NCBI GenBank assembly: GCA_029261035.1
Contig: JAJDCD010000008.1
Coordinates: 230,882 to 294,881, forward strand
Reading direction: 5' to 3'
Source of the DNA: Candidatus Omnitrophota bacterium
Lineage (GTDB): Bacteria > Omnitrophota > Omnitrophia > Omnitrophales > JACROU01
Length of the DNA: 64,000 bases
The notes beneath the pieces are model-generated. The model saw nothing but the letters and a program-made list of their open reading frames with translations. It did not search any database and was not told the DNA's origin. Within the stretch, counting starts at the first letter, position 1. Each line of letters begins with the position of its first letter. Positions 4,559 to 41,716 of this stretch are shown piece by piece. Made by a program: the position numbers and the translations under genes.

Positions 4559-4823
4559 TCCTAAATCACCTTCACTAGACAACAAATGCCTTTATCCCAA
4601 TCCAAAATTAAAACCCCAACAATAATAATACTTTCGTTATTTAATTAATAACGAAACACCCTAAACCCCAGAAACAATAGTTGCTCGATGCAACTCTTGT
4701 TTCAACCACCTAACACCCCACACATGTTTACAACTCTAAAGAACAAGTGCGTATCCTCGCCGCGAGTTGCGCAAGCCAAAGGCCGAGCATGTCTGAGCGC
4801 CGAGGATATGCACTTGTTCGAAC
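4559..4823. repeat. Intergenic structured repeat element, copy 1 (candidate ncRNA or hairpin-targeting element)
   Basis: About 265 bp shared with 14331-14600: identical hairpins TTTCGTTATTTAATTAATAACGAAA and GTTGCTCGATGCAAC, conserved core CCGCGAGTTGCGCAAGCCAAAGGCCGAGCATGTCTGAGCGCC flanked by an 18-bp stem whose sequence differs between copies but stays complementary. Confidence 0.6.
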
Positions 4824-14330: not shown

Positions 14331-14600
14331 CCTAAATCCTATCCAAACACTCTCAGAACTGACAACGCCTTTATCCCACTCCACAAATAAAATTCCTAAA
14401 AATAACAATGCGTTTCGTTATTTAATTAATAACGAAACACTATAAACCCAAGAAACAATAGTTGCTCGATGCAACTCTTGTTTCAACCCCTAACACCCCA
14501 CAAAAGTTATTAACTTAAAGGAAAATGGAATATTTCCGCCGCGAGTTGCGCAGCCCAAAGGGCGAGCATGTCTGAGCGCCGGAAACATTCCATTTTCCGA
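14331..14600. repeat. Intergenic structured repeat element, copy 2
   Basis: Second copy of the 4559-4823 element; stem GGAAAATGGAATATTTCCG / CGGAAACATTCCATTTTCC encloses the same conserved core. Confidence 0.6.
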
Positions 14601-16808: not shown

Positions 16809-16998
16809 TCAGCCTCTCAAAATAAGCACAATTACATTAAGTATTAATAAAATAACAAGTTATACAAATTATACCCTTTTATATGGAAAACAAAAAGAGC
16901 TGTTGTCATTCCGAAAAGAGTAACAGCGCATGTCCACCATCATGTTGGATGGAAAAAATATCGTAGAGATTAAACGAAAATACATAATAAGTCCCTCA

Positions 16999-17048
16999 GA
17001 CAGGCCCGGGCCTCTTATTTTCGAAAAAAGGAGGCCCGGGCCTAAATG
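16999..17048. repeat. Quasi-palindromic repeat with two AGGCCCGGGCCT palindromes (copy 1)
   Basis: AGGCCCGGGCCT at 17002-17013 and 17032-17043 around central TTTCGAAA; same unit at 17479-17528; minus-strand reading gives hairpin plus T-run just after the gene stop (terminator-like). Confidence 0.6.
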
Positions 17049-17420: not shown

Positions 17421-17478
17421 CCCAAACTCCCTTCTAGTTAAATGAAATAATTCAGAGACATTATACACACCACCCCAA

Positions 17479-17528
17479 AACAGGCCCGGGCCTGTTTTTT
17501 TCGAAATATTCAGGCCCGGGCCTAAATG
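17479..17528. repeat. Quasi-palindromic repeat with two AGGCCCGGGCCT palindromes (copy 2)
   Basis: CAGGCCCGGGCCTG + T7 (17481-17500), TTTCGAAA, second AGGCCCGGGCCT at 17512-17523; direct repeat of 16999-17048 bracketing the gene. Confidence 0.6.
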
Positions 17529-17670
17529 AAGGAAAAGCAGACAACAATGTTGTCGTAATCCAATAAAATAACAATATTGTAACTATTGTAGATAAAATAC
17601 AATTTTATTTATTTTGATAAATACATATAAATAAAACACTTACAAACATACAGGAAAATATTAAAAACAT

Positions 17671-20508: not shown

Positions 20509-21786
20509 ATGTATAGAAAAATTCATGAAGATCTCTTAGAGAAGAATCAATCTCAAAGAAAACTTAATATAGGATCTGCTGTTCGGCAATACATGAGAAA
20601 CAAAAGAATCAGCATGAAAGATTTACTTAAAAAAACAAAAATAAATGAAAGCACAATTAAAAATATTCTTCACTATGGAGAAATGAATACGAGTCAGAAA
20701 AACTTCACAAAATTAGTAAAAGCATTAGGCGTGTCCGTTGACGAGTTCATTCTTACCGCGAGAGAAACCTCCGAATCCAATTTATATATTTTAAAAAATA
20801 ACTCTGCCCCCATTTTTAAATATGATGGCTATGAAGTTGAGTCACACTCTCCTTCTCAGTTTTCACAAAAAGACTTCATCCTCTCTCTTATCAGAATAAA
20901 CCCAAGAGCTTCTATTAACCACATAAAGTCTGAAGTAGGCATGGAACCTGTTTGCTGTTTTATAGTCAACGGACACCTTAATGTTAATTATAATGGAAAA
21001 ACACAGCATGTTCACACAAATCAATCTTTTATTTTTGACCCAAATCATAAACACAGTTTTAGAAACCCTGCATCATCAGGAACTACAGATTTCTATATCT
21101 TGTTTAGATTAAACCCGAAATCAGAAGAAAAAGAACAAGAAGCAAAACCGACTTTAGATGAATTCTCAGTCTCAGATTTAATTCAACAAATTAGAAAAGA
21201 ATTATCTCCGCACACCAATAAAGCTTTACCAACACCTTCCCTAGCAGCACTATCAGGGATAGATGCAAACGCTCTTAACCACCTTCAGTTTAGAGAAAAT
21301 AAAGTAATCCCTTTTGACAAGCTTGAACTTCTTGCAAGCACAACAGAGAATACTTTTGAACAAATTATACAAAAGTCTCTAAACACTTATAAGGGTTTCT
21401 TCCATATATATACAGATGAAAATAAATTTAAAATTGATCTTTCATTAAGATATGGCACACAATTCACTAGCCATACTCAGCTGGGAACCTCAAACAAAAG
21501 TTTCACAATTGCAGACATCACACTCGACCCTTATCGAATAGGCTTTCCTAAAAAACAATGGCAATTCAAAGCCCCAGGCTTTATGGCTATTAAAGTAGAA
21601 AGAGGTATTGTTGGACTTCAATATGGAAAACAACCTTTAAAAAAATTGGAATGGGGAGATTCCGTCTATCTAAATACTGATGTAGGATTTACATTAGAAA
21701 ACTTGATCCCTATTGAAAAAGCAAAAGAACTGGAAGAGTCTGCAGAACCAAAAGCGATGCTATTTAGTTCCCCCCCTCTTTTTTAA
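20509..21786 (+). CDS. XRE-family HTH regulator with tandem HTH-cupin architecture
   Basis: N-terminal HTH_XRE-like segment (ISMKDLLKKTKINESTIKNIL...LGVSVDEFI) followed by cupin-like beta region; second HTH-like plus cupin-like unit in C-terminal half; convergent with the sensor-kinase operon. Confidence 0.55.
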   Translation: MYRKIHEDLLEKNQSQRKLNIGSAVRQYMRNKRISMKDLLKKTKINESTIKNILHYGEMNTSQKNFTKLVKALGVSVDEFILTARETSESNLYILKNNSAPIFKYDGYEVESHSPSQFSQKDFILSLIRINPRASINHIKSEVGMEPVCCFIVNGHLNVNYNGKTQHVHTNQSFIFDPNHKHSFRNPASSGTTDFYILFRLNPKSEEKEQEAKPTLDEFSVSDLIQQIRKELSPHTNKALPTPSLAALSGIDANALNHLQFRENKVIPFDKLELLASTTENTFEQIIQKSLNTYKGFFHIYTDENKFKIDLSLRYGTQFTSHTQLGTSNKSFTIADITLDPYRIGFPKKQWQFKAPGFMAIKVERGIVGLQYGKQPLKKLEWGDSVYLNTDVGFTLENLIPIEKAKELEESAEPKAMLFSSPPLF

Positions 21787-22573: not shown

Positions 22574-22942
22574 TTAAAGCAACTCACATACTTTTTTATA
22601 TATCTCATCTGGTTGAATCCCAGAAGGTTTTAGAGCATAATGAGAAATGCCAGCATCAAATGCTTCTTGCTTTAGATTCTGATCCACATATCCTGTCATT
22701 GCTATAATTTTAGCATCAGGATAGATTTCTCGACACTTTTTAATCACATCAATCCCCGTGGTTGATGTTGAAAGCCTTAAATCAAAAACATAAACATCAA
22801 ACGAATATTTTGAAAATATTTCAATAGCACTTTCACCGGTTAACGCTGTTTCGACTTCAAACTCTCTTTCAAGTTTCTCTTTAATAAAATCACATATTTC
22901 TTCCTCATCATCCATAACGAGTATTCTTTTATTTCCCATCAC
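22574..22942 (-). CDS. Single-domain response regulator (CheY-like receiver)
   Basis: 122 aa; ILVMDDEEE, phospho-acceptor region VFDLRL, conserved Thr/Lys positions (IIAMTGY, ALKP). Confidence 0.8.
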   Translation of the reverse strand: MMGNKRILVMDDEEEICDFIKEKLEREFEVETALTGESAIEIFSKYSFDVYVFDLRLSTSTTGIDVIKKCREIYPDAKIIAMTGYVDQNLKQEAFDAGISHYALKPSGIQPDEIYKKVCELL

Positions 22943-24569
22943 TGTCCCCCAATGGTAGTGATATTCTGAATGTCACTCCTGGCTTATTTTCTTTTTTAAT
23001 TTCAATTTTTCCACCATGAATATCTTCGATAATGTGCTTGCAGATAAAAAGCCCCTGCCCTTGCCCAGACAGATTAACATCAGCGATCACATATCCCTTA
23101 GTAGTAAATCCCTGCACCCAAATATCCTCTTCTATCTCCCTCTTAATCCCTGGCCCAATATCAGAGAATTCAATCTCAGCTTCTCCTTCGTTCTTAGGAT
23201 TTTTTCTAGCATAAATAATTATCTTTTTCTTACGATAAGGCTTCATTGCCTCAATGGAATTTTTAATCATATTGGTAAATACCTGTATCAGTTGTTCAAT
23301 GTTACCGTTAACCACCAAATTGGGCTCAATATGCTCTTCCACATTCAAGTTTAGAGCATCCTCTGTATCAAATGTAAGAAATCTTTTTGCCTCCAAACAT
23401 TCCTTCCATAAGATCCTAAAATTCAGAGGCCCAATCTCCCCACTTTCTCCTTCTTCCAAATTAGTTAAAGTTCTAACAGCTACTTCAATTCGTTTTCCTG
23501 ATCTATATATCCTTTCAGCCTTATCTTTTATTTTTTTCAAATTATCCAAAACTACATTCTGTTCTTCTAAGTCAGAATCTGTCATTAAGCTCTCTTTGTA
23601 ATAAGATTCTAACTCTAAAACAGCTTCTTCGCTCAAGGTATTAGAACGAGCCAATAACCATGCTAGTGGATTATTGATTTCATGCCCCATCGCCTTTGCC
23701 ATACCGTCTAAAACACCCCTCTTCTCAGCCAAAATTAACTCTGTTTGCATATCTTGAAGCATCCTATTCTTTGATTCTAATTCTTTATTACTATTTTCAA
23801 TTTCTTCCCTTTTATTGACGGCTTGGTCATAAAGCCGAGCATTTTCTATAGCTATCTCTGACTGTTGAGCTAAAATAGAAAATACTTTTATTTCTTCTGC
23901 TTGGTATCGTTTTCCAGACTTTTTTTCCCCTAGAAAGAAGACGCCTCTCAATTTAGAGCCTTCTGCCTGTCCACGGCTTGTTTTAAAACTAGGAATAATA
24001 AGCATTATCTCATTCTCTTTCATAAATTTCTCTATGTCAGCAACTTCAGCATTGTAATTTATCTGGAGTAAATTCCTATAAGAAATATATGTTTGATATT
24101 TATTAATATATTCCAAAACATTACATTTTAAAACACCCCCAACAACTCCTCTGCTTGCTTCTAAAGTAAGTTCTCCACTCTTTTCATCGCGCACATAAAT
24201 TTGAGCCGATTTAATTCTAGCCCATAGACATAATATAAGAACCAGAAGATTGGAAACCTCGGACAAACTCCTTACTTTAGATATTGCCTGTCCCGCTTTT
24301 TGAAGAAACTTTTTATGATTAAAGTCTTCCCTAAAAACAGTATTCTCTACCCCATAGGTAACACCCCGTTTAATTGGGTAATAAACCAACATCGCAAAAA
24401 TAACTCCAAACCCCATAAATATATTACTATTTACTATGGCTTTATCTCCAAGAAGAGCCAACGTAAGTTCAGCAACAACAACCCCCATACCTATGATAAT
24501 TAAAAACAGTAATACAAATATGAGCACTGATTTTATATATCTATTTAAATCTGTTATTTTATATTTCAT
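22929..24569 (-). CDS. Sensor histidine kinase (2 TM, GAF-like, HisKA, HATPase_c)
   Basis: H-box MAKAMGHEINNPL, G-boxes in C-terminus (GQGQGLFICKHII); N-terminal TM pair; overlaps neighbours by 11-14 bp. Confidence 0.85.
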   Translation of the reverse strand: MKYKITDLNRYIKSVLIFVLLFLIIIGMGVVVAELTLALLGDKAIVNSNIFMGFGVIFAMLVYYPIKRGVTYGVENTVFREDFNHKKFLQKAGQAISKVRSLSEVSNLLVLILCLWARIKSAQIYVRDEKSGELTLEASRGVVGGVLKCNVLEYINKYQTYISYRNLLQINYNAEVADIEKFMKENEIMLIIPSFKTSRGQAEGSKLRGVFFLGEKKSGKRYQAEEIKVFSILAQQSEIAIENARLYDQAVNKREEIENSNKELESKNRMLQDMQTELILAEKRGVLDGMAKAMGHEINNPLAWLLARSNTLSEEAVLELESYYKESLMTDSDLEEQNVVLDNLKKIKDKAERIYRSGKRIEVAVRTLTNLEEGESGEIGPLNFRILWKECLEAKRFLTFDTEDALNLNVEEHIEPNLVVNGNIEQLIQVFTNMIKNSIEAMKPYRKKKIIIYARKNPKNEGEAEIEFSDIGPGIKREIEEDIWVQGFTTKGYVIADVNLSGQGQGLFICKHIIEDIHGGKIEIKKENKPGVTFRISLPLGDSDGK

Positions 24570-27500
24570 ATCTTTTCCCTAAGGGTAAACAAATAATAAA
24601 ACAAGCCCCTTCATTTAAATCCTCATCCAAACTTATCTTTCCCTTGTGAATTGTTTCTACAATATGCCGACAAACATAAAGTCCTTGCCCTAACAACCCT
24701 GACTCCCCCACATCAACCTGTTTCGTTGTAAAATCTTTTTGCCATATTTGATGACGCAGCTCTACAGGAATTCCTTTTCCATTATCCAGAAATCTAATCT
24801 CCAAATATCCATTTTTATTATCTTCCTTAGCTGATACTGAAATTCTTTTATTCTTCTGTTCCCGCATAGCCTCATAAGAGTTTTTAATTAAATTATTAAA
24901 AACCTGAACCATGTTTCCCATATTTCCCATAACCATAGCATCAGAAGGAATAGTTGCACTAAATTGACAATTCCCCAATGTCTCATCGTACATAGAAAAC
25001 CGACTCGTCTTTAATGATTCATTCCAAACACTACCAAATGAAATTGGCTCCAGCCCACCTTTACTACTTTTCATCAAATCTGTTAATATTTTTACAGCTA
25101 GCTCTATCTGGTTCCCCGATCGATCCATCCTCATACAAAGATCCTCAATCCCCCCTAATTTCTCTTTAAATACCCTTAAAGGCTCTTCTCTAAGCCCATT
25201 GGGGGAACTCGATAAAGAATTGCGTATTTCCCTTAAATCCTCTTGTAAAATACCACTTATTCGGGCCCGTGCGATAGCCAACGGGTTATTTATCTCATGC
25301 CCCATCGCTTTTGCCATATTCACCATAGTATTCGTTTTTTCAGCAATAATAATCTGAGCCTGTTTTTCCTTAATCTTAGAGTTAAATTCTTCAAGTTTAA
25401 TATGATTTTTCTCAAGATCTTCAGTTTTCTCAAGCACTTCATCCAATAGCACCGCATTTTCAACTGCTACAGCCACACCATGAGACAACGTAAATAAAGT
25501 ACTAACCTCATCAGCAGAGTAATCTTCATCTGACTTTTTCTTCCCTAATGCAATAATACTATTCAAAATAATCTTCCCACTTTCATCTACTCTCATGCAG
25601 GGTAATAAGAGATCTGCCTTAAGCTCCTCCATTAAGAGCATAATTTCGTGATAGTTATAATCTTCATAATGCTTTTTCTTATCTTCCTGAAAAACATCTC
25701 TAAATCTAATCGGCAATCTCCGTTCAAGAAAATATTTTATTACCGAATGAGAGTGAAACAACTCTAACTTAGAAAAAGCAGAACCTTTTCCTCGCACAGC
25801 CGAAACAACAAAAGATTGTTTTGTTTTACTTCGAAATAGAAATGTTGCATTATCAATTCGAGTGCCTAATGTAAAAACGGTGACAAGCTGACGGGATAAA
25901 TCATTTAAATTCCGAACCCTTGAGATCAAATGACTCACATTTGAAAGCAACTGACCAAAATCATATTTTCTCTGGAACAAAAATCGATCCGTAACATGAA
26001 CCAACAAATTTCTGACGGGTTCATAAATTACTAAAATTATCAAAATGCTTAATATGATAGGCATGCCCTTTACATTCTCAAAGGAATAAAATCTCACTAT
26101 GTCAGCAAATTTAAATGAAGAAAACCAGATCAAGGTCACCGTGAGAAAAAAAATAGAAGTAAACACAAGTGTTTTTTTAATAAAAATAGCTATATTCATT
26201 AACTGATAACGAAGAATTGCATAAAAAATCAAAGCTAAAAACATTACTACAAACACGAATCCTATAGGATAAAAAGAATAGCCATAATTTACTAAAAAAT
26301 CACTGCTAGATAAAAAGTAAAAGACCAATGCAATTAAAAGATAATAATTTTGATTTCTTAATCTACAATCTATTCTTTCACGAATAGTTTTAGTCGTGAT
26401 TAAATATAAACATCTCAAAAACATAACAACAACATACACAATGAATAAAAGATGAAATATTCCACACTGAGGATACACACCCCACAATTGCTCATAATAT
26501 CCTTTAATAAATCCCTTTGTTGTAATCAAGAGCAAAATAAACACTGCAGGTATAATTATTAGCTGTCTTGATATTACAATATCTAATCGGCTACCTGAAT
26601 ACTCTGAGAAGAACCTATAAAAATAGTAAGGAATTAAAATTATAAAAACATACCCTGCTTTTATAATATAAATTATTAAAATTGGATTATCTAGTGGAAT
26701 CAATACTCCCCAAGTGAATTGCCAAAAAAAAGTTACGAAGCATATACAAGAAAAGTACTCTCCTATTTTATCTTTTCTATTAATTAGAACATAAATTCCA
26801 AGTCCTAAACTTATGAAGGAAGAAATTAAAGGAAGCAATGCATATATAGTGATTTTGTGAAAATTAGTATTTATAGCAATAAATAGCAAATACAAGAATA
26901 GAGAAAAAATTAATGAAAAAACAATAGTCCTTTTTAGGTAATAATTTACCCCAAGAGCTCTGTGCCTTACTATTACATAAGCCATAATAGCTACATAAAA
27001 GGATATAAGAATGTTGGAATAAGGGGGGAAATATATATCAAATGCTGGCAACCAATTACTGCCACCACCAATATATCCAATCAGAGTCGCAAAAAATATA
27101 TATTTTATTTGAAGAGCTTTCTCTCCACTTTTTTTTATAACATAAATACAGAGCAAACTTAGACCTATTACAGCCTGCAAAGCCCAAAATACTATATACA
27201 AAAAAAATAATGGGTTTTCTTTTGCTGATGGCCAATATCCCCATCTAAAATAACTAACAACATCAAAAAGAATTAGTTTAAAATTAAGAATCAGAAAAAT
27301 AAAACAAACAACATCATTAATAATTAAATATATTATATATTTATTTTTTTGTGAAGTTAAAGATATGACAAAATGCAAAAACATGGAATTGATTAAGATA
27401 ATTCCACCTAACAAGATTTGATAAGACCTCATCCCATCAGAAACATTCTTAGCGATACCCCAATAAAAATACCCATAATTGTATAAAGCAATTGCAAAGC

Positions 27501-27618
27501 AAAATAAAACGAAAAATAAAATTTCAGGATTTGTTTTCTTAGCTTTCAATAAAACGAATAAAGCAATACCTAAAGTTAATACTAAATTAATAAGTCCTAT
27601 CCAAGAAATTATAGTCAC
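24559..27618 (-). CDS. Sensor histidine kinase with very large polytopic N-terminal sensor (about 17 TM)
   Basis: 1019 aa; roughly 550-aa hydrophobic N-terminus, then GAF-like region, H-box MAKAMGHEINNPL and HATPase_c (GLLGQGLYVCRHIVE). Confidence 0.85.
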   Translation of the reverse strand: MTIISWIGLINLVLTLGIALFVLLKAKKTNPEILFFVLFCFAIALYNYGYFYWGIAKNVSDGMRSYQILLGGIILINSMFLHFVISLTSQKNKYIIYLIINDVVCFIFLILNFKLILFDVVSYFRWGYWPSAKENPLFFLYIVFWALQAVIGLSLLCIYVIKKSGEKALQIKYIFFATLIGYIGGGSNWLPAFDIYFPPYSNILISFYVAIMAYVIVRHRALGVNYYLKRTIVFSLIFSLFLYLLFIAINTNFHKITIYALLPLISSFISLGLGIYVLINRKDKIGEYFSCICFVTFFWQFTWGVLIPLDNPILIIYIIKAGYVFIILIPYYFYRFFSEYSGSRLDIVISRQLIIIPAVFILLLITTKGFIKGYYEQLWGVYPQCGIFHLLFIVYVVVMFLRCLYLITTKTIRERIDCRLRNQNYYLLIALVFYFLSSSDFLVNYGYSFYPIGFVFVVMFLALIFYAILRYQLMNIAIFIKKTLVFTSIFFLTVTLIWFSSFKFADIVRFYSFENVKGMPIILSILIILVIYEPVRNLLVHVTDRFLFQRKYDFGQLLSNVSHLISRVRNLNDLSRQLVTVFTLGTRIDNATFLFRSKTKQSFVVSAVRGKGSAFSKLELFHSHSVIKYFLERRLPIRFRDVFQEDKKKHYEDYNYHEIMLLMEELKADLLLPCMRVDESGKIILNSIIALGKKKSDEDYSADEVSTLFTLSHGVAVAVENAVLLDEVLEKTEDLEKNHIKLEEFNSKIKEKQAQIIIAEKTNTMVNMAKAMGHEINNPLAIARARISGILQEDLREIRNSLSSSPNGLREEPLRVFKEKLGGIEDLCMRMDRSGNQIELAVKILTDLMKSSKGGLEPISFGSVWNESLKTSRFSMYDETLGNCQFSATIPSDAMVMGNMGNMVQVFNNLIKNSYEAMREQKNKRISVSAKEDNKNGYLEIRFLDNGKGIPVELRHQIWQKDFTTKQVDVGESGLLGQGLYVCRHIVETIHKGKISLDEDLNEGACFIICLPLGKRYEI

Positions 27619-27746: not shown

Positions 27747-27824
<78 letters not shown>

Positions 27825-27892: not shown

Positions 27893-30214
27893 TTAAGCAA
27901 CTTTATGGGGTAAAGCAGTCAATTCTTCTTCAACTAAAGGAAGTTTTATAACGAATTTTGTTCCCTTTCCAATTTCACTTATTACTACCATTACTCCCTT
28001 ATGCACTGATTCAATAATATGTTTGCAAATATACAAGCCTTGTCCTTGACCAGATGTTCCTATCCCTTTTTTTGCATCTTGTTCCTTTGTAGAATAACCT
28101 TGTTGAAACACTTTTCTTTGAACCTCTTCCGTCATCCCAGGTCCATTATCAATAAATTCTATTCTTGCCATTCCCTGATTTTCCTTGTCTATATCTGCAA
28201 CTAATTTAATTTCTCGGTTGGACTGTTGATCCATAGCTTCATAAGCATTTTTTATTAAATTAGTAAAAACTTGCATTAATTGTTCTAAATTACCATTAAT
28301 TAATAAATTCGCCTTAATATCTTCCTCAAATTCACAAAAACTCAAGTTTTCATCATATGTTGAAAAACGAGTTGCTTGAACAGATTCTTTCCATAAAACT
28401 AAAAAATTTAACGGTGTCATCTCACCTTTTGACTCTTTTAAAATATTAGTCAAAGTCTGCACAGCGACTTTTATTCTTCTCGCAGATTTTTCTACCCTAG
28501 AAATGTAATCAAAAATCTTATCAAAGTTTTCCTCTTCTATTTTTTTCTCTTCAGGAGATAATAGTTGTAAATATGCTGGCATAATTTTCCCTATCTTTTT
28601 CCTTAACAAATCAACACGTCCTTCTACAGTACATAATGGATTGTAAACTTCATGCCCTATAGCTTTAGCCATTCCAACCATCGTTGCATTTTTTTCAGCA
28701 ATAATTAAAGACGATTGAGTTTCTTGTAATCTCAAATTAGAGTTTTCTAATTCTTGATTAGTTTTTTCTAAAGCTATCGTACGATCAATTTTTTCATCAA
28801 ACAAACGCGCATTCTCAATTGCTAATGCCGATTCTTGTGCAATTACTGAAATAACGGAAATTTCAGAATCTCGATATATTTCATCCGACTTCTTTTTCCC
28901 CAAAACTAGTAAGCCTTTTAAATCCGATTCATAATAACTTGCTATTATTAATTCTGCACCCATATATTCAAATTCATTTCTTATTAATTTCAGATCTTCT
29001 ATTTTAATTTTTTTATTGTTAACATTCTTATCTAACATATCCATTATTTCATCATACTTTATATATGCAGTATTCTTGTACGATTTTAAATATCTCATTA
29101 TTACAGAATCACACCTAATTTCTTCAACTTCAATAAAACGATTGTTGTTTTTTCTAACTTCTACTAAACTGAAACTCTCCCCACTCTCCTTAGGCATATA
29201 AATAGATACCGCGCTAATTCTAGCCCTCATTGTCAAAAAATGACTTATCAATTTAAGTTGATGCTTTAAACTATTAATTTTAGCCAACCCCATACTCGCA
29301 TCTTTTAAAAGCTTGCTATAATCATATTTCTTTTGAAAAAGATACTTATCCGTAATATTAATCAAGATCTTTCTAGTTGGATCATACAAAACCATAGAAA
29401 CTAATACGCAAATAATTAAAGTTAAATTAATATTAATTTCATAAAACTGCCCAATTAGATTTTGTGTTAAGATAAATATCAATGATATTACTCCTAAGAC
29501 AACTGAAAACACCCCTGTAAATACTAATGACTTTTTAATAAATACTTCTATATCCATTGCTCTATATTTCAATATTGCATAAGTCATCATCCCCATATAT
29601 ATAGGAGCTAGCCCATTACCAAATGGAGGTATTTGTATGTTATACCAAAGAAAAAAGTTAGTAACTCCTCCAGCATAACCGATAATCATCCCTATTAAAA
29701 CTAGCTTAATCTGATTCCTCCACCCTCCAGTACTTCTTTTTAAAACAACCCATAGAAGATAACATGCATAAACTGCATTAATAAGAAAAAACAAAAGAAA
29801 AAAATGAAACAGAATACTTGGTACTGGCCAATATAGAAAAATATTTCTTTTTTCTACGCCAACTATTAGGTATCCTAAAAAATTTAATATTAAAAATATA
29901 AATGAAAGGATATAAGAAAAGAGAAGATAAGATTCATGTTTCTTATGAAGCTTCACCCAAGAAACTACAAAATCTAAAAAAATTACGGGGATCATGATAG
30001 CGCCAGAAATTAAGATTTTGGCACAGAACAGTGATAAGGATGGGCTTTTGGAAATAAGCCAAAAAAAGTATCCAAAACTCCATATAGCAACCATAAAATT
30101 AAAAAAAGCATATTTTATGTTTACATAGTTTTTAGAGTTCTTAAATAAAACAAAAGACCCTAAAATTATACTTGTTAACGCATTTATTAATCCAGTAATA
30201 GCATAAAAAAACAT
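27893..30214 (-). CDS. Sensor histidine kinase with 7TM-type N-terminal sensor
   Basis: 773 aa; about 7-8 TM N-terminus, GAF-like linker, H-box MAKAIGHEVYNPL, HATPase_c (GTSGQGQGLYICKHIIE). Confidence 0.85.
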   Translation of the reverse strand: MFFYAITGLINALTSIILGSFVLFKNSKNYVNIKYAFFNFMVAIWSFGYFFWLISKSPSLSLFCAKILISGAIMIPVIFLDFVVSWVKLHKKHESYLLFSYILSFIFLILNFLGYLIVGVEKRNIFLYWPVPSILFHFFLLFFLINAVYACYLLWVVLKRSTGGWRNQIKLVLIGMIIGYAGGVTNFFLWYNIQIPPFGNGLAPIYMGMMTYAILKYRAMDIEVFIKKSLVFTGVFSVVLGVISLIFILTQNLIGQFYEININLTLIICVLVSMVLYDPTRKILINITDKYLFQKKYDYSKLLKDASMGLAKINSLKHQLKLISHFLTMRARISAVSIYMPKESGESFSLVEVRKNNNRFIEVEEIRCDSVIMRYLKSYKNTAYIKYDEIMDMLDKNVNNKKIKIEDLKLIRNEFEYMGAELIIASYYESDLKGLLVLGKKKSDEIYRDSEISVISVIAQESALAIENARLFDEKIDRTIALEKTNQELENSNLRLQETQSSLIIAEKNATMVGMAKAIGHEVYNPLCTVEGRVDLLRKKIGKIMPAYLQLLSPEEKKIEEENFDKIFDYISRVEKSARRIKVAVQTLTNILKESKGEMTPLNFLVLWKESVQATRFSTYDENLSFCEFEEDIKANLLINGNLEQLMQVFTNLIKNAYEAMDQQSNREIKLVADIDKENQGMARIEFIDNGPGMTEEVQRKVFQQGYSTKEQDAKKGIGTSGQGQGLYICKHIIESVHKGVMVVISEIGKGTKFVIKLPLVEEELTALPHKVA

Positions 30215-31277: not shown

Positions 31278-32663
31278 CTAGCTATTAGAAATTGATTGTT
31301 GTTTTTCAAAAAAAGGAATATGGTCAAAGCGGTAGGTGAAATTTACAATAAAGTCATTAGTATAGCTCGTATATCGACCGTCAATATTAAGACCTGTCTT
31401 AGCGAAAACCTCTGAGTTCTGAATATTTCTACTAAAATGAAATAAACCAAGGTATGCGGTATCTAAACTCATATTTTCTGTGATATTCCACCTTAATCCT
31501 AATGACCAACCCATTCTATGAGAATCAACCAAAACATTATCTACATGCTCTTTAGGAGATGCTGCTGTGTAGTAAAGAGTTCCTGCCATTAAATCTAATT
31601 TATCATTAATTTTGTAATGACCTCCGAGGTGAAAGCTCCATGTGTTGTCATAATCCCTTGGTACTCTTCCTAAATTTTGTAGTACGACATTAGTTATTTC
31701 GAATGCGAAGTCTTGGTCTTTGAAAACATTCCACATTGTGTAACCCACGTCAAACTCTATTGCCCACTTATCCGATGGAACATAGGCATAACCAACTGTT
31801 ATGTTTGGAGGTAAGGGCAAGTCTGATGTTGCTTGTGTCTTGAAGTCAGGGCCTGTTGGAAATAGATTTCCTAAAACAGGTGAAAATAAAAGTGGGTTTA
31901 AACCTTCTATGCGTACTTCCCCATCAATTTCAACAGTTGCTCTGCTTCTGTAATAAAAACCTATTCTGTGTTTTTCAGATGGTTTGTATAGAGCACCTAA
32001 AGTCCATCCTAATCCATAACCATCGGAATCAAGTCTTGCTACACCGTCAGGAGCATTATTTGGACCAATAATCCCTGCTAGAACATTGGAATTTGGAAAG
32101 TTGGATATCTGATCATATTTAAATGTTACGTAGTCTACAGCGGCACCTCCAATTGAAAGCTTATCGGAAAGCTTCAAGCCACCTGCCAATGTTATAGCAA
32201 CCATTTTTAAGGCATTACGATGTCCTGTGTACCTCGAGAAGACATCTGTAGAATTGTATCTGTTTTGAAGTCCGAAGGGGGCTGTCATTCCTAAACCAAA
32301 ACCTACCCTGTCATCTAAAATTTCACCTGGATTTGCTGTAAGGAAGAAGTTGGGAACAAATGCAAGCTGAGCACTGCTCTTCTCTCTTCGCCCTGTTCCC
32401 TTGCTCTGGAAATGCGTTAGAGTATTGATAGCAGCGCCACCCACGGATAATTGAACCCCTGGGAGGTCTGGAAGTCCAGCTGGGTTAAATACAACCGCAT
32501 CTGGCTCATCTGGACGAGCAACAACTGCATTGGATTGAGCTATCGATCTTGCACTGTAAGTTGCATTCTCAAATCCTGAAGATCCTACCGCCCAACATTG
32601 GGACTGGAAAGCTACCAAAATAAGAACGATTAAAAGGCTGAGTTTAGTGTAAAGTCTAAGCAT
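31278..32663 (-). CDS. Outer-membrane beta-barrel protein, FadL/TodX-like (hydrophobic compound channel)
   Basis: Signal peptide, N-terminal GSSGFENATYSARSIAQSNAVVA hatch-like segment, alternating beta-strand pattern, C-terminal aromatic residue; 461 aa. Confidence 0.6.
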   Translation of the reverse strand: MLRLYTKLSLLIVLILVAFQSQCWAVGSSGFENATYSARSIAQSNAVVARPDEPDAVVFNPAGLPDLPGVQLSVGGAAINTLTHFQSKGTGRREKSSAQLAFVPNFFLTANPGEILDDRVGFGLGMTAPFGLQNRYNSTDVFSRYTGHRNALKMVAITLAGGLKLSDKLSIGGAAVDYVTFKYDQISNFPNSNVLAGIIGPNNAPDGVARLDSDGYGLGWTLGALYKPSEKHRIGFYYRSRATVEIDGEVRIEGLNPLLFSPVLGNLFPTGPDFKTQATSDLPLPPNITVGYAYVPSDKWAIEFDVGYTMWNVFKDQDFAFEITNVVLQNLGRVPRDYDNTWSFHLGGHYKINDKLDLMAGTLYYTAASPKEHVDNVLVDSHRMGWSLGLRWNITENMSLDTAYLGLFHFSRNIQNSEVFAKTGLNIDGRYTSYTNDFIVNFTYRFDHIPFFEKQQSISNS

Positions 32664-32820: not shown

Positions 32821-32925
32821 AGATTTACAGGGCTTTAGGATATTAACCAAGAAACTTATCGAAGAAGGCATGTTTGATGAGGAAGAAATAGCCAATGAAG
32901 ATGGAGTTGTGATAGAAAATTAAGA
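32821..32925 (-). pseudogene. Relic 3' end of a CPBP-protease gene (duplicate of the 33873-34985 C-terminus)
   Basis: Minus-strand translation gives ...FYHNSIFIGYFFLIKHAFFDKFLG*, matching the C-terminus of the CPBP gene (VVHNSIFIGYFFLIKHAFFDKYLG*); DNA 32857-32916 about 91 percent identical to 33888-33947. Confidence 0.6.
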
Positions 32926-33073
32926 GAAATAAGAAACTGACATTTTTAATTCTTAGGCTGCTTGAGCAATGAGTTGAATTCTTTTTAGGGCTTGGGTGAC
33001 GGCAGCTAATATTATGTCTTTTGAAATTGTTCCCAGGACTGTCCTGTTACTTGATCAGAAGCTTCAAAATATT

Positions 33074-33388
33074 TTACGCTGCTTCTTTTTTTGGTTTAAT
33101 CACAATTTTTAAACCAACGGCTTCCAGTATAGAGTTTAAGGTAGATAGTTTAGGGTTTCCTTTTTTAGACATTGCTTTGTAGAGACTCTCTCTACCAAGG
33201 TTGGCTTTAGTGGCTACCTCTCTTACACTATGGGCTTTAGCAACATCCATAAGAGCTAAAAGAAACAACTCTTCTGGATCTCCCTCTTTATCCACCCAAC
33301 AAGCCATTAGATATTGCGCTGCATAATTAGGGTCCTTCAATCTCTCTAATAGCCCCTCTTTATATGAAACACTTTTTACTCTTTTCAT
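33074..33388 (-). CDS. Addiction-module antidote protein (HTH antitoxin, HigA-like)
   Basis: 104 aa; HTH-containing C-terminal half; overlaps upstream toxin gene by 4 bp in the toxin-first HigBA arrangement. Confidence 0.75.
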   Translation of the reverse strand: MKRVKSVSYKEGLLERLKDPNYAAQYLMACWVDKEGDPEELFLLALMDVAKAHSVREVATKANLGRESLYKAMSKKGNPKLSTLNSILEAVGLKIVIKPKKEAA

Positions 33389-33705
33389 TTAAAATCCCTA
33401 TATTCTTTCCAGTATTGTTGAGCTTTTTTTATATCTTTATTTTGCCCACTTTTAGTTCCACCACACAATAATAAAATTATTCTATTTTGTTCTTTTCCAA
33501 AATAAATTCGATATCCTGGACCATAGTAAATTTTCAATTCAAAAACCCCAGCTCCAACAGATCGACTGTTTCCGAGAGTCCCTCGTTCTACATTTGCAAT
33601 CCGAGTATCAATTAAAACTTTAGCACACCTATCTCTTAATGATTCAAACCACTCACTAAATGGTCTTCTTCCCTCAATAGTTACATATTCTCTAATCTCA
33701 TTCAT
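33385..33705 (-). CDS. Addiction-module killer protein (RelE/ParE-superfamily toxin, HigB-like)
   Basis: 106 aa; N-terminal Gp49-like motif and basic C-terminus; precedes HTH antitoxin. Confidence 0.75.
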   Translation of the reverse strand: MNEIREYVTIEGRRPFSEWFESLRDRCAKVLIDTRIANVERGTLGNSRSVGAGVFELKIYYGPGYRIYFGKEQNRIILLLCGGTKSGQNKDIKKAQQYWKEYRDFK

Positions 33706-33723
33706 TAATGGCTCACTACATTT

Positions 33724-33739
33724 GTATCCTAAAAGATAC
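33724..33739. promoter_or_regulatory. Palindrome GTATCCTAAAAGATAC upstream of toxin gene (candidate TA autoregulation operator)
   Basis: Inverted repeat GTATC-N6-GATAC located 19-34 bp upstream of toxin start codon. Confidence 0.3.
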
Positions 33740-33872
33740 TATTTGTCAAATTTTAAATAATTAATATTATTATTGCAATATATTAATTTTAATAAGTGCC
33801 GTTACTGGTAGTGCCAGGCTATATGTATTTACAAAAATACATAAGCAAACTCAATGAAAATGAATAGCCTCG

Positions 33873-34985
33873 TTAGCCTAAATATTTATCGAAGAAGGCA
33901 TGTTTTATTAGGAAGAAATAGCCTATGAATATGGAATTGTGGACCACATGAATCACTATGGATGGGACTAGAGAGTTGCTCTTTTCGTACACATAGGCCA
34001 AAACCATGCCTAATACAAATATGGGGAAAAAAGCAAATATGGAACCATGGATTGATGCGAAAAAGGCTGAGGATAAAACCATAGCCCATTTTGCTCCCCA
34101 TTTTTTTCTGAATGCGGGATAGCAAAACCCTCTGAAGAAGATCTCCTCTACAATAGGCCCTATGGTGCATGCTAAAAAAACAGAAAGATAAATAACCATT
34201 GGGTTTTTTTTATCTTCTTCTAAAAAGATCTCTACCAATTCATGAGGTGGCGGTTCGTAAGAAATCATTTCTGTAATAACAACTAACAAGGCTAAGACCA
34301 TCGCAATAACAGGAAGTATGGCGGAGTAACTTAATAATCCTAACCCCAAGTCTTTAAATCCATATTTGAAGCGCAGTCCAAGGGATGAAAAGTTTGTTTG
34401 ATATTCTTTATTCAGTAGATTCAAAATAAATAAAACGATAACAACATCAATGAAAATAGTTAAAAGTAAAGTCCATAAATTTTCCACCCCCTTGTTATCC
34501 AACAAACTATGAAAAGAGCTTAGCGCAGCTGAAAAAACAAGGGTAGAGAACAAAATGAATATAATACATTTAGCAATATCTCTAACGCTCCAGGGAATTT
34601 CTGTCCGAGGCAATCTTGCTTTAATTATTTCTTTTCCTTTAGCCCACTGGGAAATAATGTTTACATCAATAAAAGCTCCTAAAAATATCCCCCCAAAAAT
34701 AAGTAATGGAATTAATATCATAAAGAAACTCTCTGTAAGAGTAGCCTCTTTAAAAAAATCGAGAATCAACTGAGTTTGGTCTTCTTGTTTTAGCTGGTCC
34801 TCTATTTGTTTCACTTGCTGTATTACTTCAGAAGGCTCTTCTACTTGATTAGGCGAAAGAAAGGAAAGTAAGAGAAAAGAACAGATAGCAAAACAGAACA
34901 AATACGAATAGGTCTTTTCTTCTTTAAAAAATTGATAAATTTCTGAGGTTGTATTTTTGAGGACACTTAGGATTTGATTGATCAT
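33873..34985 (-). CDS. CPBP-family intramembrane metalloprotease (CAAX protease/Abi-like)
   Basis: Motifs EEIFFRGF (EExxxR), FFASIHGS (FxxxH) and HVVHNSIF (HxxxN) in a polytopic membrane protein; 370 aa. Confidence 0.7.
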   Translation of the reverse strand: MINQILSVLKNTTSEIYQFFKEEKTYSYLFCFAICSFLLLSFLSPNQVEEPSEVIQQVKQIEDQLKQEDQTQLILDFFKEATLTESFFMILIPLLIFGGIFLGAFIDVNIISQWAKGKEIIKARLPRTEIPWSVRDIAKCIIFILFSTLVFSAALSSFHSLLDNKGVENLWTLLLTIFIDVVIVLFILNLLNKEYQTNFSSLGLRFKYGFKDLGLGLLSYSAILPVIAMVLALLVVITEMISYEPPPHELVEIFLEEDKKNPMVIYLSVFLACTIGPIVEEIFFRGFCYPAFRKKWGAKWAMVLSSAFFASIHGSIFAFFPIFVLGMVLAYVYEKSNSLVPSIVIHVVHNSIFIGYFFLIKHAFFDKYLG

Positions 34986-34993
34986 CGTATGGT

Positions 34994-35962
34994 TTAGAAC
35001 AAGACATCTTCCAACTGAATAGCAATATGCTCTGCTGCTATTTTTTGATTAAGATTACCTTCTAATGTTTCTCTAGAGGACATAAGGTCTTGTATTAATT
35101 GAGAAATAGAGTCTCTGCTTACCGCCCCAACACGTGCTGAAAATTGCTGTATTTCTTCTGGGTAGATTAAAGGAGGATTTTCTTTTTCTATTGTGCTCAC
35201 TATGTAATCTCTTAAGAATTGAATAAACAACTCAACGATGGCTTTTAATTCTTCTCGGTTCTTAACTCCATACTCGTTTAAAAAACCCCATGCTCCTTGA
35301 TCTAACCAATCGGAAAGCAAAAAACGGTTATGTTCCAACACGCCCTCTTCAGCAAATGCTAAAGCTTTTCCTAAATTACCTTCTGTAAATCGAGACAAAA
35401 TATCTATATCTTCTTCTATCCCACGTTGTTCTAATACCTGATGAATTGTTTCACTGCTAAGAGGATTCAGCTGAACTTCAATCGAACGACTACGAATAGT
35501 ATCTAAAAGTACATTTTTTTGGGATGAAAGCAAAATAATTTGGGAAAAATCAGGAGGCTCTTCCAGCGTCTTCAAAAGTGCATTCTGACTTTCCAAAGTC
35601 ATCGCGTTCGCATTGTTAATAATAAATACTTTTGTTTTTGATTCAAAGGGTTTTAGAGAAATCCAATGGTTAAGGTCGCGAATGTCATCAATCTTCACTT
35701 TCTTTGTATCTTCTTCTACCCCATACCATTTAATGTCCGGGTGATTTCCCTGTTCTATTTTATGGCAAGAAGAGCACTCACACTCTTCAAAGAAAACGCC
35801 TTTTTCGCAACATATCGCTTTGGTTAGGAAGCGAGCGAATGTCTTTTTCCCCATTCCCTCTTCACCTGTGACTAACAAGCTGTGACTTAAATTATTGTTC
35901 TTTATAGAGTTCTCAATAAACTCAAGAACCTTTTCATTTCCATAAAATTTATCTAAAAGCAT
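34994..35962 (-). CDS. holB: DNA polymerase III delta-prime subunit
   Basis: AAA+ clamp-loader fold with degenerate Walker A (GEEGMGKKTFA), zinc module CxxC...CxxC, SRC-like motif; overlaps tmk. Confidence 0.75.
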   Translation of the reverse strand: MLLDKFYGNEKVLEFIENSIKNNNLSHSLLVTGEEGMGKKTFARFLTKAICCEKGVFFEECECSSCHKIEQGNHPDIKWYGVEEDTKKVKIDDIRDLNHWISLKPFESKTKVFIINNANAMTLESQNALLKTLEEPPDFSQIILLSSQKNVLLDTIRSRSIEVQLNPLSSETIHQVLEQRGIEEDIDILSRFTEGNLGKALAFAEEGVLEHNRFLLSDWLDQGAWGFLNEYGVKNREELKAIVELFIQFLRDYIVSTIEKENPPLIYPEEIQQFSARVGAVSRDSISQLIQDLMSSRETLEGNLNQKIAAEHIAIQLEDVLF

Positions 35963-39534: not shown

Positions 39535-40722
39535 TTATTTATTTCCTTTCGTAACCACAACCATAGCATCACAAGCAACAGCTTCCCCATCACCAATCGG
39601 GCCTAATCCTTCGGCTGTTTTTGCTTTGATATTGATGTTCTCTTTTTCTAAATTGAGAAACTTTGATAATTTAGATTTAATTTTAGATTTATAGAGACCT
39701 AATTTCGGTCTTTCTAAATGGATCGTACAATCCAGCTGAGAAACAGCCCAACCTTGTTTTTTAGCCATATCTACAATCGAATTTAAAATCTTACTACTGG
39801 ATATGTTTTTGTTTTTCTGATTTGTATCAGAAAAGTATTCGCCAATATCCCCTAAACCCAGAGAACCTAGAATAGCATCCGAAATAGCATGCAACAGAGC
39901 ATCCCCATCCGAGTGACCCAAAGGTCCTTTTGAGAATTTCAATCTTTCTCCCCCAAGAATAAATGGGCGTCCCTGAATAAGACGGTGAATATCGTATCCC
40001 TGTCCGATTTTAATTTCTGCCACCTGAGAAACCATATTCTCTGCCAATTTCCAATCCTGCAAGGTTGTTATTTTAAAATTAAGGGAATCCATTTTAACCA
40101 ATTCAACAGGTTTATCAATAGCTTCTAATAAACTACTTTCATCTGTGGCCTCAAAAGGGTGTTTTTTGTAGTGGTGATAGGCTTCCTTAAGCCATGTTTT
40201 TTTAGCTACTTGAGGTGTTTCGGCCTCCCAAAGAGCCGTTCTAGATACCGTTTTAATTCGTTTACCGGATATCTTTTGCTTAACAGTGGAAGCCATGGGT
40301 TTTGCGATAATGGCCGCCCCCATCTTTTTAGCTCTACGGATCACAGCTTCAATTGCTGTTTTTGTAATAAAGGGTCTTGCAGCATCATGAACCAATACCC
40401 AGGAGCTTTGAGGCTTTACTTTTTTTATACCTTGTAAAACAGAGTCCGCTCTTGTCTTTCCGCCTTCAACAACTTTGACGTTGATATTAGAGGCTCCTTC
40501 AGATCGAATCCATTTCTTAAACGATATGATTTTTTGTTTAGGAACAACAATAATAATTTCAGAAACTAGATTAGAATCTATCAAGGCTTGAACGGAATGC
40601 ATCAAAAGAGGTTTTCCTGCCAAAGGCCAAAACCCTTTGGGTTGAGCATGTAAATTTTTTGAAGTTTTTTTCAGACGGCTTCCAGAGCCTCCCGCAACAA
40701 CAATAGCACTAACGTTTTTCAT
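39535..40722 (-). CDS. ispDF: Bifunctional IspD/IspF (MEP cytidylyltransferase / MEcPP synthase)
   Basis: N-terminal IspD motif AIVVAGGSGSRL, C-terminal IspF motifs (GYDIHRL, GHSDGDALLHAI); 395 aa. Confidence 0.9.
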   Translation of the reverse strand: MKNVSAIVVAGGSGSRLKKTSKNLHAQPKGFWPLAGKPLLMHSVQALIDSNLVSEIIIVVPKQKIISFKKWIRSEGASNINVKVVEGGKTRADSVLQGIKKVKPQSSWVLVHDAARPFITKTAIEAVIRRAKKMGAAIIAKPMASTVKQKISGKRIKTVSRTALWEAETPQVAKKTWLKEAYHHYKKHPFEATDESSLLEAIDKPVELVKMDSLNFKITTLQDWKLAENMVSQVAEIKIGQGYDIHRLIQGRPFILGGERLKFSKGPLGHSDGDALLHAISDAILGSLGLGDIGEYFSDTNQKNKNISSSKILNSIVDMAKKQGWAVSQLDCTIHLERPKLGLYKSKIKSKLSKFLNLEKENINIKAKTAEGLGPIGDGEAVACDAMVVVTKGNK

Positions 40723-41716
40723 GTTTATTCATTAAGGGTTTTGCAAATATCATTCGACCTGCCTGAGTTTGTAATACACTTAAAATTTCAATATCAATCG
40801 TCTTTCCCACTAGACCAGAACCTTCCTCAACAACAATCATGGTGCCATCTTCTAAATAGGAGACACCTTGGTCCGCTTCTTTCCCCTGTTTCACAACCTT
40901 AACAGTCATACGCTCACCAGAAATTGCGGCTGGCTTCAACGCATTAGCCAAATCATTTATATTTAACACATGAACTCCTTGAATTTCAGCTACTTTATTC
41001 AAGTTAAAATCATTCGTCCATATTTTCGCATTTAGCTCTTGTGCCATTTTTACTAATTTAGAATCAACCGTGGGTATCTCTGGATATTCCATATCTTGTA
41101 TTTTTACATTAATTCGTGAAGAGGTTTTTATTTGGTTAAGGATGTCCAATCCGCGACGTCCTTTTGCTCTTTTTAAATCGTCTGCAGAATCCGCTATTTG
41201 CTGCAGTTCTTTTAAAACAAAACGCGGAACAACCATCGTCCCACTCACAAATTCTGTTTCTGCCATCCCCAAAATACGCCCATCAATAATAACACTCGTA
41301 TCTAAAATAATAATTTCTTTTCCTGTATTTTTTGTATCTAAACGAACAAAAGGAATTAAAACCTGAAATTCTTCCTGACCCCTCAAAATTACAATTGCTC
41401 CTAAATAAGAAAATAGGATTGCTGAAAGGTAACTCAACTGCTGGACTGTTGTTTGACTTAAAGAAGACATATTAACAACACTAATAAAAAGACGGCTCAA
41501 AACAAGCCCTAAAACGATTCCCACAAAAATAGAAAGAATATTTCTGACTGTCGCCTTTTTGAAAAAAAGATCCAATAGAATAGCTAAAGCAGCTAAGGTA
41601 ATCCCAATAACCAAACCCCAGACAGAAAAAGGCTCTATCCCAAAAGCAGAAAAACCCATATAGTAACTACCACCTATGCAGGATAGTAGAATAAGAACTC
41701 TTAAGACATGAATCAT
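40709..41716 (-). CDS. Membrane-anchored PIN/TRAM domain protein (YacL-like)
   Basis: N-terminal TM helices, PIN-like acidic core (IILDTSVIIDGR), C-terminal TRAM-like beta region; position upstream of ispDF mirrors Bacillus yacL. Confidence 0.7.
   Translation of the reverse strand: MIHVLRVLILLSCIGGSYYMGFSAFGIEPFSVWGLVIGITLAALAILLDLFFKKATVRNILSIFVGIVLGLVLSRLFISVVNMSSLSQTTVQQLSYLSAILFSYLGAIVILRGQEEFQVLIPFVRLDTKNTGKEIIILDTSVIIDGRILGMAETEFVSGTMVVPRFVLKELQQIADSADDLKRAKGRRGLDILNQIKTSSRINVKIQDMEYPEIPTVDSKLVKMAQELNAKIWTNDFNLNKVAEIQGVHVLNINDLANALKPAAISGERMTVKVVKQGKEADQGVSYLEDGTMIVVEEGSGLVGKTIDIEILSVLQTQAGRMIFAKPLMNKHEKR

Follow-up and report, generated by a model that had tools for sequence, protein, structure and literature searches.

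Two diverged copies of the end of a CPBP protease gene flank a toxin-antitoxin pair in Candidatus Omnitrophota and may be the scar of an integration event

In a stretch of 64,000 nucleotides from a Candidatus Omnitrophota bacterium (contig JAJDCD010000008.1 of assembly GCA_029261035.1, positions 230,882 to 294,881; called the window below, and the basis of all coordinates) we found a type II toxin-antitoxin (TA) gene pair enclosed by two direct copies of the 3' end of a gene for a CPBP/Rce1-like glutamic-type intramembrane protease, one of which completes the protease gene while the other stands on its own. We hold it somewhat better than an even bet (a probability of roughly 0.55) that this arrangement is a Campbell-type integration scar, left by a foreign circle that carried a diverged CPBP gene end and that has now shrunk to a TA islet. 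The minus strand carries every gene of the region, in the order holB, CPBP, toxin, antitoxin, orphan CPBP end, FadL, and the features are the following:

34994-35962, minus strand: holB, encoding the delta' subunit of DNA polymerase III (PF13177)
33873-34985, minus strand: intact gene for the CPBP/Rce1-like glutamic-type intramembrane protease, 370 aa (PF02517, E-value 1.8e-22)
33873-33941, minus strand: proximal repeat copy (attL-like), consisting of the last 22 codons of the CPBP gene and its stop codon (HNSIFIGYFFLIKHAFFDKYLG, then stop)
33706-33872, minus strand: leader of the TA operon, non-coding, 167 nt
33385-33705, minus strand: toxin, 106 aa, RelE/ParE superfamily (HI1419/Gp49-like; HigB-like by gene order)
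33074-33388, minus strand: antitoxin, 104 aa, helix-turn-helix (HTH) protein (HI1420 family; HigA-like)
32912-33073, no strand: spacer between the antitoxin stop codon and the distal repeat copy, 162 nt, no gene
32843-32911, minus strand: distal repeat copy (attR-like), an orphaned end of the CPBP gene (HNSIFIGYFFLIKHAFFDKFLG, then stop)
31278-32663, minus strand: gene for a FadL/TodX-type outer-membrane channel, the first gene beyond the distal copy (PF03349, E-value 3.2e-56)

A preliminary description of the region had claimed that the repeats enclose only the toxin and antitoxin genes, and the content of open reading frames (ORFs) confirms this: between the copies there are just these two ORFs and 167 and 162 nt of non-coding DNA. 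Between the distal copy and the FadL gene lies a non-coding gap of 179 nt. The repeat constitutes a single family of two copies (32843-32911 versus 33873-33941) that are 69 nt long, 86% identical and spaced by 1030 nt, with a core of 56 nt in which the identity rises to 91% (32856-32911 versus 33886-33941; blastn within the window, E-value 9e-16). The duplication of about 60 bp and about 91% identity that had been reported was borne out by this core, its coordinates having been off by 1-6 nt. Both copies have a 20-mer in common (TTATCGAAGAAGGCATGTTT) that is found nowhere else in the window, even when three mismatches are allowed, and that occurred 0 times in 100 shuffles.

The repeat spans exactly the part of the gene from the codon for His349, an invariant residue of the CPBP catalytic motif, to the stop codon, and the similarity drops abruptly at both edges; no further similarity to CPBP was detected in the 162-nt spacer or upstream of the His349 codon of the orphan. 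Read on the minus strand, the distal copy ends in FYHNSIFIGYFFLIKHAFFDKFLG and a stop codon, and the intact CPBP gene in VVHNSIFIGYFFLIKHAFFDKYLG and a stop codon. The distal copy has no in-frame ATG, GTG or TTG start, and its frame is open over only 45 codons upstream. For want of such a start the relic was rejected as a small ORF, and a fusion to it by read-through from the antitoxin was rejected as well: the two are in the same frame, yet two stop codons intervene. A third, weaker copy (tandem accretion) was another candidate that was dropped, since blastn-short and tblastn over the window gave chance matches only, to a coding string (GATGAGGAAGAAATA, Asp-Glu-Glu-Glu-Ile) at about 22,900 and about 61,640. 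A GC-richer stretch that had been pointed out next to the TA genes turned out to be unremarkable (0.35-0.40, versus 0.40-0.49 in the neighbouring FadL gene).

Over the 22 sense codons and the stop codon the copies differ by 10 nucleotide changes, of which nine are synonymous (in eight codons) and one results in a conservative Phe/Tyr change; indels are absent (0) and the stop codon is retained in both. The Nei-Gojobori method yielded a proportion of synonymous differences (pS) of 0.65 and a proportion of non-synonymous differences (pN) of 0.037 for the two copies, that is, a dN/dS of about 0.03. When 10 substitutions were simulated at random, the probability of observing at most one amino-acid change was P<1e-4, and with only five of the differences arising in a dead copy it was about 0.01. 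That both copies diverged under coding constraint, each within a working gene, before they were joined therefore appears well supported: the copies would already have been different when they came together, because their divergence is nearly purely synonymous and the distal copy is now untranslatable. As far as the sequences tell, this implies for one of the copies an origin in a different allele or lineage of the CPBP gene, and such divergence before joining disfavours a fresh target-site duplication.

The GC content at third codon positions (GC3) of the distal copy is 14/22 (0.64), versus 0.30 for the genes of the window (P=0.001), and TTC is used for all five Phe codons in both copies, versus 17% TTC in the genes of the window (P=1e-4). 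The rest of the CPBP gene has TTC at 11 of its 34 Phe codons, compared to five of five in the repeat (Fisher P=0.008), and in the orthologous tails of relatives Phe is mostly encoded by TTT in this stretch. This suggests, within the limits of a small sample, that the 69-nt segment may have a history apart from that of the rest of the gene or may be subject to a constraint at the DNA level; likewise, the codon usage of the distal copy looks foreign, which we counted in favour of integration, again on a small sample. The codon-usage log-likelihood was -29.4 for the proximal and -31.4 for the distal copy, an edge that resides mainly in the 5' half and involves few sites. A crossover within the 20-nt core could produce such an edge, but the sites are too few to be relied on.

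The enclosed gene pair was described earlier as being of the HigB/HigA type, and it is indeed a type II TA module with the toxin first, both members of which score above the cut-offs of the respective TIGRFAM models. The toxin matched TIGR02683 with 119.3 bits (cut-off 62.85; E-value 7.2e-35; positions 2-95 of the 95 of the profile) and the 'toxin' family phrog_3445 (1.8e-31), and its sole Pfam match was to PF05973 (Gp49), with 18.9 bits and thus below the threshold of 23.9. The antitoxin matched TIGR02684 (63.3 bits, cut-off 53.7; 1.8e-17), PF21716 (62.5 bits, cut-off 27; 3.5e-17) and the 'transcriptional repressor' family phrog_4268 (6.4e-22). The two genes lie on the same strand, with the antitoxin start overlapping the toxin stop by 4 nt, and in an alignment with 13 homologues the toxin is full length and untruncated, with 24 invariant columns. 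In gene order, overlap and TIGR02683/TIGR02684 scores the pair resembles HigBA/HI1419-HI1420, modules in which a RelE/ParE toxin is followed by an HTH-XRE antitoxin, and it differs from canonical HigBA in that the toxin matched no HigB model of Pfam and no sequence of a solved structure in the PDB at E<=0.01. Judged by these matches, the apt name is that of a RelE/ParE-family (HI1419-type) toxin with an HI1420-type antitoxin, HigB-like by organisation only.

By consensus matching, a sigma-70-like promoter (TTGCAA-17-TAAAAT, 33778 to 33750) was recognised upstream of the toxin gene, as was a 9-nt palindrome in the leader (33759-33767 and 33780-33788) that is a candidate operator; the promoter and operator functions are thus putative. 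A search of the region for Rfam families and terminators gave one insignificant Rfam match and no terminator-like site. The closest homologues share only about 60% identity with the toxin and come from scattered taxa (cyanobacteria and others), and the same cassette was not found elsewhere, the searches yielding no relatives at the level of the cassette. The GC3 of the toxin gene is 0.17, versus 0.30 for the genes of the window. Membership of phage protein families, scattered homologues and a low toxin GC3 are consistent with a horizontal arrival of the TA pair.

The genomic context was compared with that in other genomes. Full-length homologues of the CPBP protein (33-50% identical; the best among 5.8 billion proteins being 50% identical) were all from Candidatus Omnitrophota, as were the homologues of the flanking genes, and in the closest genome (P0002/L057) the amino-acid identity amounts to 70-74% in gltX, cysS and tmk and to only 49% in CPBP. 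The conserved cluster order in Omnitrophota is cysS-tmk-holB-metG-tatD-CPBP-(M50-like peptidase)-thiL-tsaE, of which the cysS-tmk-holB part is preserved upstream of CPBP in the window as well; the CPBP gene of the window is identified as the orthologue of the gene between tatD and the M50-like peptidase gene in other Omnitrophota. In a scan for duplicated gene ends with a motif regular expression in 55 GTDB and 55 metagenome loci, two copies were present in the window only; a second CPBP C-terminal motif occurs in 0 of 113 loci of relatives. Among the 77 relatives' loci that extend more than 700 nt downstream of CPBP, the M50 gene follows at no more than 400 nt in 54, and thiL comes next in most of the others. 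The distant relatives carry no insert, M50 or thiL starting at about 150 nt or less from CPBP. A TA homologue near CPBP was found among these 77 solely in an independent Logan assembly contig (L001) that stems from the same genome as the window. In no relative does a FadL homologue adjoin CPBP, its place being taken by the M50-like peptidase gene or thiL. From this distribution the FadL gene is not an ancestral neighbour of CPBP, and the insert is, by the same comparison, specific to this lineage. Relatives that share the arrangement with no empty site, together with an upstream repeat that belongs to a conserved functional gene, had been named in the preliminary description as findings that would speak against an insertion; no TA pair or second gene end was encountered in the 77 loci of relatives, and the distal copy is not part of a gene. 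Two loci, L065 (1835-2947) and L074 (381-1471), were considered as gene-end relics and rejected, as they hold frameshifted full CPBP genes followed by the M50 gene; in both, CPBP is broken up over two or three frames that overlap, owing to frameshifts or to errors of assembly.

In the window metG-tatD is gone from between holB and CPBP, compared with L057 and 77 other loci. Downstream, M50-thiL-tsaE-tsaB-alr is replaced by the TA pair, the relic, the FadL gene, a methyltransferase gene, three genes for seven-transmembrane (7TM) histidine kinases and two for response regulators, and the synteny with the nearest relative picks up again at an HTH-cupin gene (20509-21786). Going by these gene orders, rearrangement in this lineage has had a breakpoint at the CPBP 3' end, which would fit a recombination-prone site.

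A defence-island context had also been proposed for the TA pair and its neighbour. This view was not supported, since the CPBP gene is a conserved orthologue in a housekeeping cluster in at least 77 relatives. PADLOC returned no match for CPBP, the antitoxin or FadL and weak generic ones for the toxin and the methyltransferase, and the content of the window consists of housekeeping, transport and two-component functions. A PIN-domain protein of 335 aa (40709-41716) that adjoins ispDF/gltX has no obvious antitoxin partner and no PADLOC match.

The course of events that we favour would be as follows. A DNA circle of foreign origin, which bore a diverged version of the final 69 nt of the CPBP gene, underwent a single crossover with the chromosomal gene end, most probably by means of a site-specific (tyrosine-type) integrase and within the identical 20-nt core (AAACATGCCTTCTTCGATAA on the sense strand). 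One copy would then complete the protease, with at most the Phe/Tyr difference, and the resident end would be displaced to the far side of the insert. Later on, the element would have been streamlined to a TA islet of 1.03 kb without recombinase or, less likely, it was minimal from the start. A stable toxin combined with a labile HTH antitoxin and autorepressor would penalise loss of the segment, and we propose that the TA part survives because its loss would be penalised in this way. The integration topology as such is well supported; the circular intermediate, the site-specific route, the recombinase, the former cargo and the activity and stabilising role of the TA pair are what we infer. 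The preliminary description had taken the repeats for an insertion scar with the gene end duplicated or restored, of which the scar and a restoration of the end by incoming DNA can be retained and a simple duplication can not, nine of the ten differences being synonymous. The locus is probably the remnant of a decayed integrative element, and not an intact member of the e14 type, as the integrase is missing.

Several results count against such an integration. Pfam domains in the ORFs of at least 90 aa across the window revealed no integrase, excisionase or transposase, either between the repeats or in the window as a whole. The CPBP C-terminal motif, which might have revealed a phage attachment site (attP), had 0 matches in the viral contigs of IMG/VR, where the toxin had no relatives either; in metagenome contigs the motif occurred only in ordinary CPBP genes, and a degenerate DNA pattern for HNSIFIGYFFLIKHAFFDK had 0 matches there, leaving us without a donor allele. 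In the 113 loci of relatives integration does not recur at the CPBP 3' end, and there was neither an empty site nor a donor allele to be demonstrated, as CPBP genes of other genomes are at best 49-50% identical. Which copy is the native one is undecidable from codon usage, with a log-likelihood gap of only about 2 units. On either side of CPBP the gene order departs from that of the conserved cluster, so that other histories are possible, and a look-up of the FadL protein put no second witness of the distal junction, which lies outside L001, on record. Related searches gave similar outcomes: the open segments in the spacers (at most 45 aa, not compared with databases) contained nothing recognisable as an integrase pseudogene, the insert has no terminal inverted repeats, and no related intact element or integrase of the same specificity was found in the window, the 113 loci or the viral contigs. 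An integron cassette was rejected on limited evidence, namely that there is no attC-like inverted repeat and no integron integrase and that the repeat is coding sequence.

The main rival, which we regard as unlikely, is a deleted tandem paralogue: two adjacent CPBP genes would have diverged under purifying selection, and the 5' 94% of the downstream one would have been deleted or overwritten as the TA pair landed, with its last 69 nt left over and with neither a foreign end nor an attachment site involved. The synonymous-only divergence and the intact frame of the orphan are accounted for equally well in this way, at a locus that is rearranged on both sides and with no integrase required, but a tandem or second CPBP gene of the orthologue group was found in 0 of the 113 relatives' loci and no leftover CPBP similarity is present upstream of the His349 codon of the orphan. 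Moreover, the tail IKHAFFDK(Y/F)LG, which is variable among orthologues, is identical at 10 of 11 positions between the copies despite near-saturated synonymous sites, which would be unusual for old paralogues that are free to subfunctionalise, and the GC3 of the orphan (0.64 versus 0.30) is hard to explain after a long residence. Less probable still is a RecA-dependent single crossover within the 69-nt segment by a circularised fragment from a related Omnitrophota strain (CPBP 3' end plus TA pair), entering by transformation or transduction and recombined by homologous or homology-facilitated recombination. Recombination at the core genes on either side has been put forward as a way in which TA islets spread (PMC13617665). 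Such a crossover yields the same topology and substitution pattern and fits the lack of an integrase; the usual route, however, would be a double crossover in the flanking genes, which would not duplicate a gene end. The minimal homology lengths for RecA make such short diverged segments poor substrates, and because 69 nt at 86% identity, with 20 nt as the longest identical run, is a very poor substrate for RecA we prefer the site-specific route. Nor would a random piece of a relative's genome be expected to have a homology that ends exactly at the stop codon; an incoming copy that had been retained solely for restoring the protein should show just this boundary.

A duplication in situ, by a long target-site duplication or by replication slippage and followed by divergence, seems very improbable to us. 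Direct repeats that flank an insert have the classic look of a target-site duplication, but a dead copy should gain mostly non-synonymous changes, stop codons and indels (the P<1e-4 for all 10 differences and about 0.01 for half of them given above), and 69 nt is far above the duplications known from transposons, in a region with no transposase or terminal inverted repeats. We see the smallest chance of all for an assembly artefact, in which a metagenome contig wrongly joins two strains. The source is evidently metagenome-derived, and contig L001, which is 100% identical to positions 32973-35780 of the window, ends 62 nt before the distal copy, so that the distal junction is without a second witness. 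Against this, if strains had been fused at k-mers common to both, a single hybrid end would have resulted, and not a pair of copies separated by 961 nt of unique DNA; the longest identical run in the copies is 20 bases, which falls short of the k-mers that assemblers usually finish with, and 32911/32912 has no shared sequence by which a false join might arise; the holB-CPBP-toxin-antitoxin side is moreover reproduced independently by L001.

The 1,030-bp unit (copy of the gene end, promoter, toxin, antitoxin and the tail of 162 nt) might also be, instead of a dead remnant, a minimal cassette that is still mobile: a TA module that is equipped only with an imitation of a host gene end as its attachment site, and that is excised and integrated in trans by an integrase from another locus in Omnitrophota genomes or from their viruses. 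We consider this very improbable; if true, the fact that both copies use none but the rare TTC codon for Phe and have two blocks (14 and 20 nt) perfectly conserved would reflect selection at the DNA level for binding of a recombinase.

The classic system with a comparable layout is that of the e14 element (and phage 21) at icd in Escherichia coli K-12. There, the 3' end of icd and its counterpart icdC are 92.7% identical over 165 nt with a sharp upstream boundary, and 10 of the 12 differences are synonymous, the other two being Asp-to-Glu changes, in agreement with the replacement of the gene end by e14 that is known from the literature (PMC6379469; PMC13626634). As in the window, the insert is flanked by direct repeats of the gene end, of which one belongs to the complete gene and the other is an orphan (icdC), the differences are nearly all synonymous (10 of 12 versus 9 of 10 here), the upstream boundary is sharp, and a functional hybrid gene would be regained if the copies recombined (PMC6379469; PMC13626634). 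The differences are that e14 measures 15.2 kb and carries intE/xisE whereas the insert described here has 1.03 kb and no recombinase, that the repeat is shorter and more diverged here, that target gene and phylum are others, and that the present case is known from sequence alone.

The locus also resembles the cis-mobilizable elements (CIMEs), decayed remnants of integrative conjugative elements (ICEs) or integrative mobilizable elements (IMEs) that retain the attachment sites attL and attR and have lost the genes for integration and transfer (PMC5704250): the insert is small and devoid of an integrase, and direct repeats that would correspond to attachment sites are retained. CIMEs were, however, defined in Firmicutes, beside ICEs of which the integrase can mobilise them, and no such partner was found here. 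A third parallel is offered by a published model according to which mobile elements bring in TA systems and streamlining then leaves very small islands that contain only the TA genes (Belot et al. 2026, PMC13617665). In line with this, the pair described here is isolated and seemingly intact, lineage-specific, without genes of mobile elements and without association with defence; the Photorhabdus study is statistical, with no mention of direct repeats in its text, whereas the scar can be read here.

Some other features of the window were recorded. Two intergenic elements of about 240 nt in the same orientation (4585-4821 and 14364-14600, 9.78 kb apart) have three hairpins each, the longest of which, of about 80 nt (4741-4819 and 14520-14598), shows nine base-pair differences between the elements, all compensatory, and a conserved apical region. 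The element had no match in Rfam, even at E<=1, and appears to be a structured RNA or a repeat of a kind that has not been described. A pair of palindromic repeats containing GGCCCGGGCC (16992-17048 and 17473-17533; 52-56 nt, 79-84% matched, both direct and inverted) encloses a stretch of about 440 nt that contains small ORFs and is situated between an MMPL gene and amt/glnB. A tRNA-Pro(TGG) gene (27747-27824) stands alone between two large genes for 7TM-receptor histidine kinases, and the three kinase paralogues (22929-24569, 24559-27618 and 27893-30214) have a conserved segment of 71 nt in common.

The locus represents no new mechanism or kind of system; the process is a known one, and the example is tidy, ordinary and quantifiable. 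Bacterial chromosomes contain scattered type II TA modules, usually without a trace of how they arrived, and in this case the trace would have survived, making the locus a concrete and datable example for the model in which TA islets arrive on an element and are then streamlined. For the Omnitrophota, an uncultivated phylum of which the mobile elements are almost unknown, the 3' end of the CPBP gene may be an attachment site to look for.

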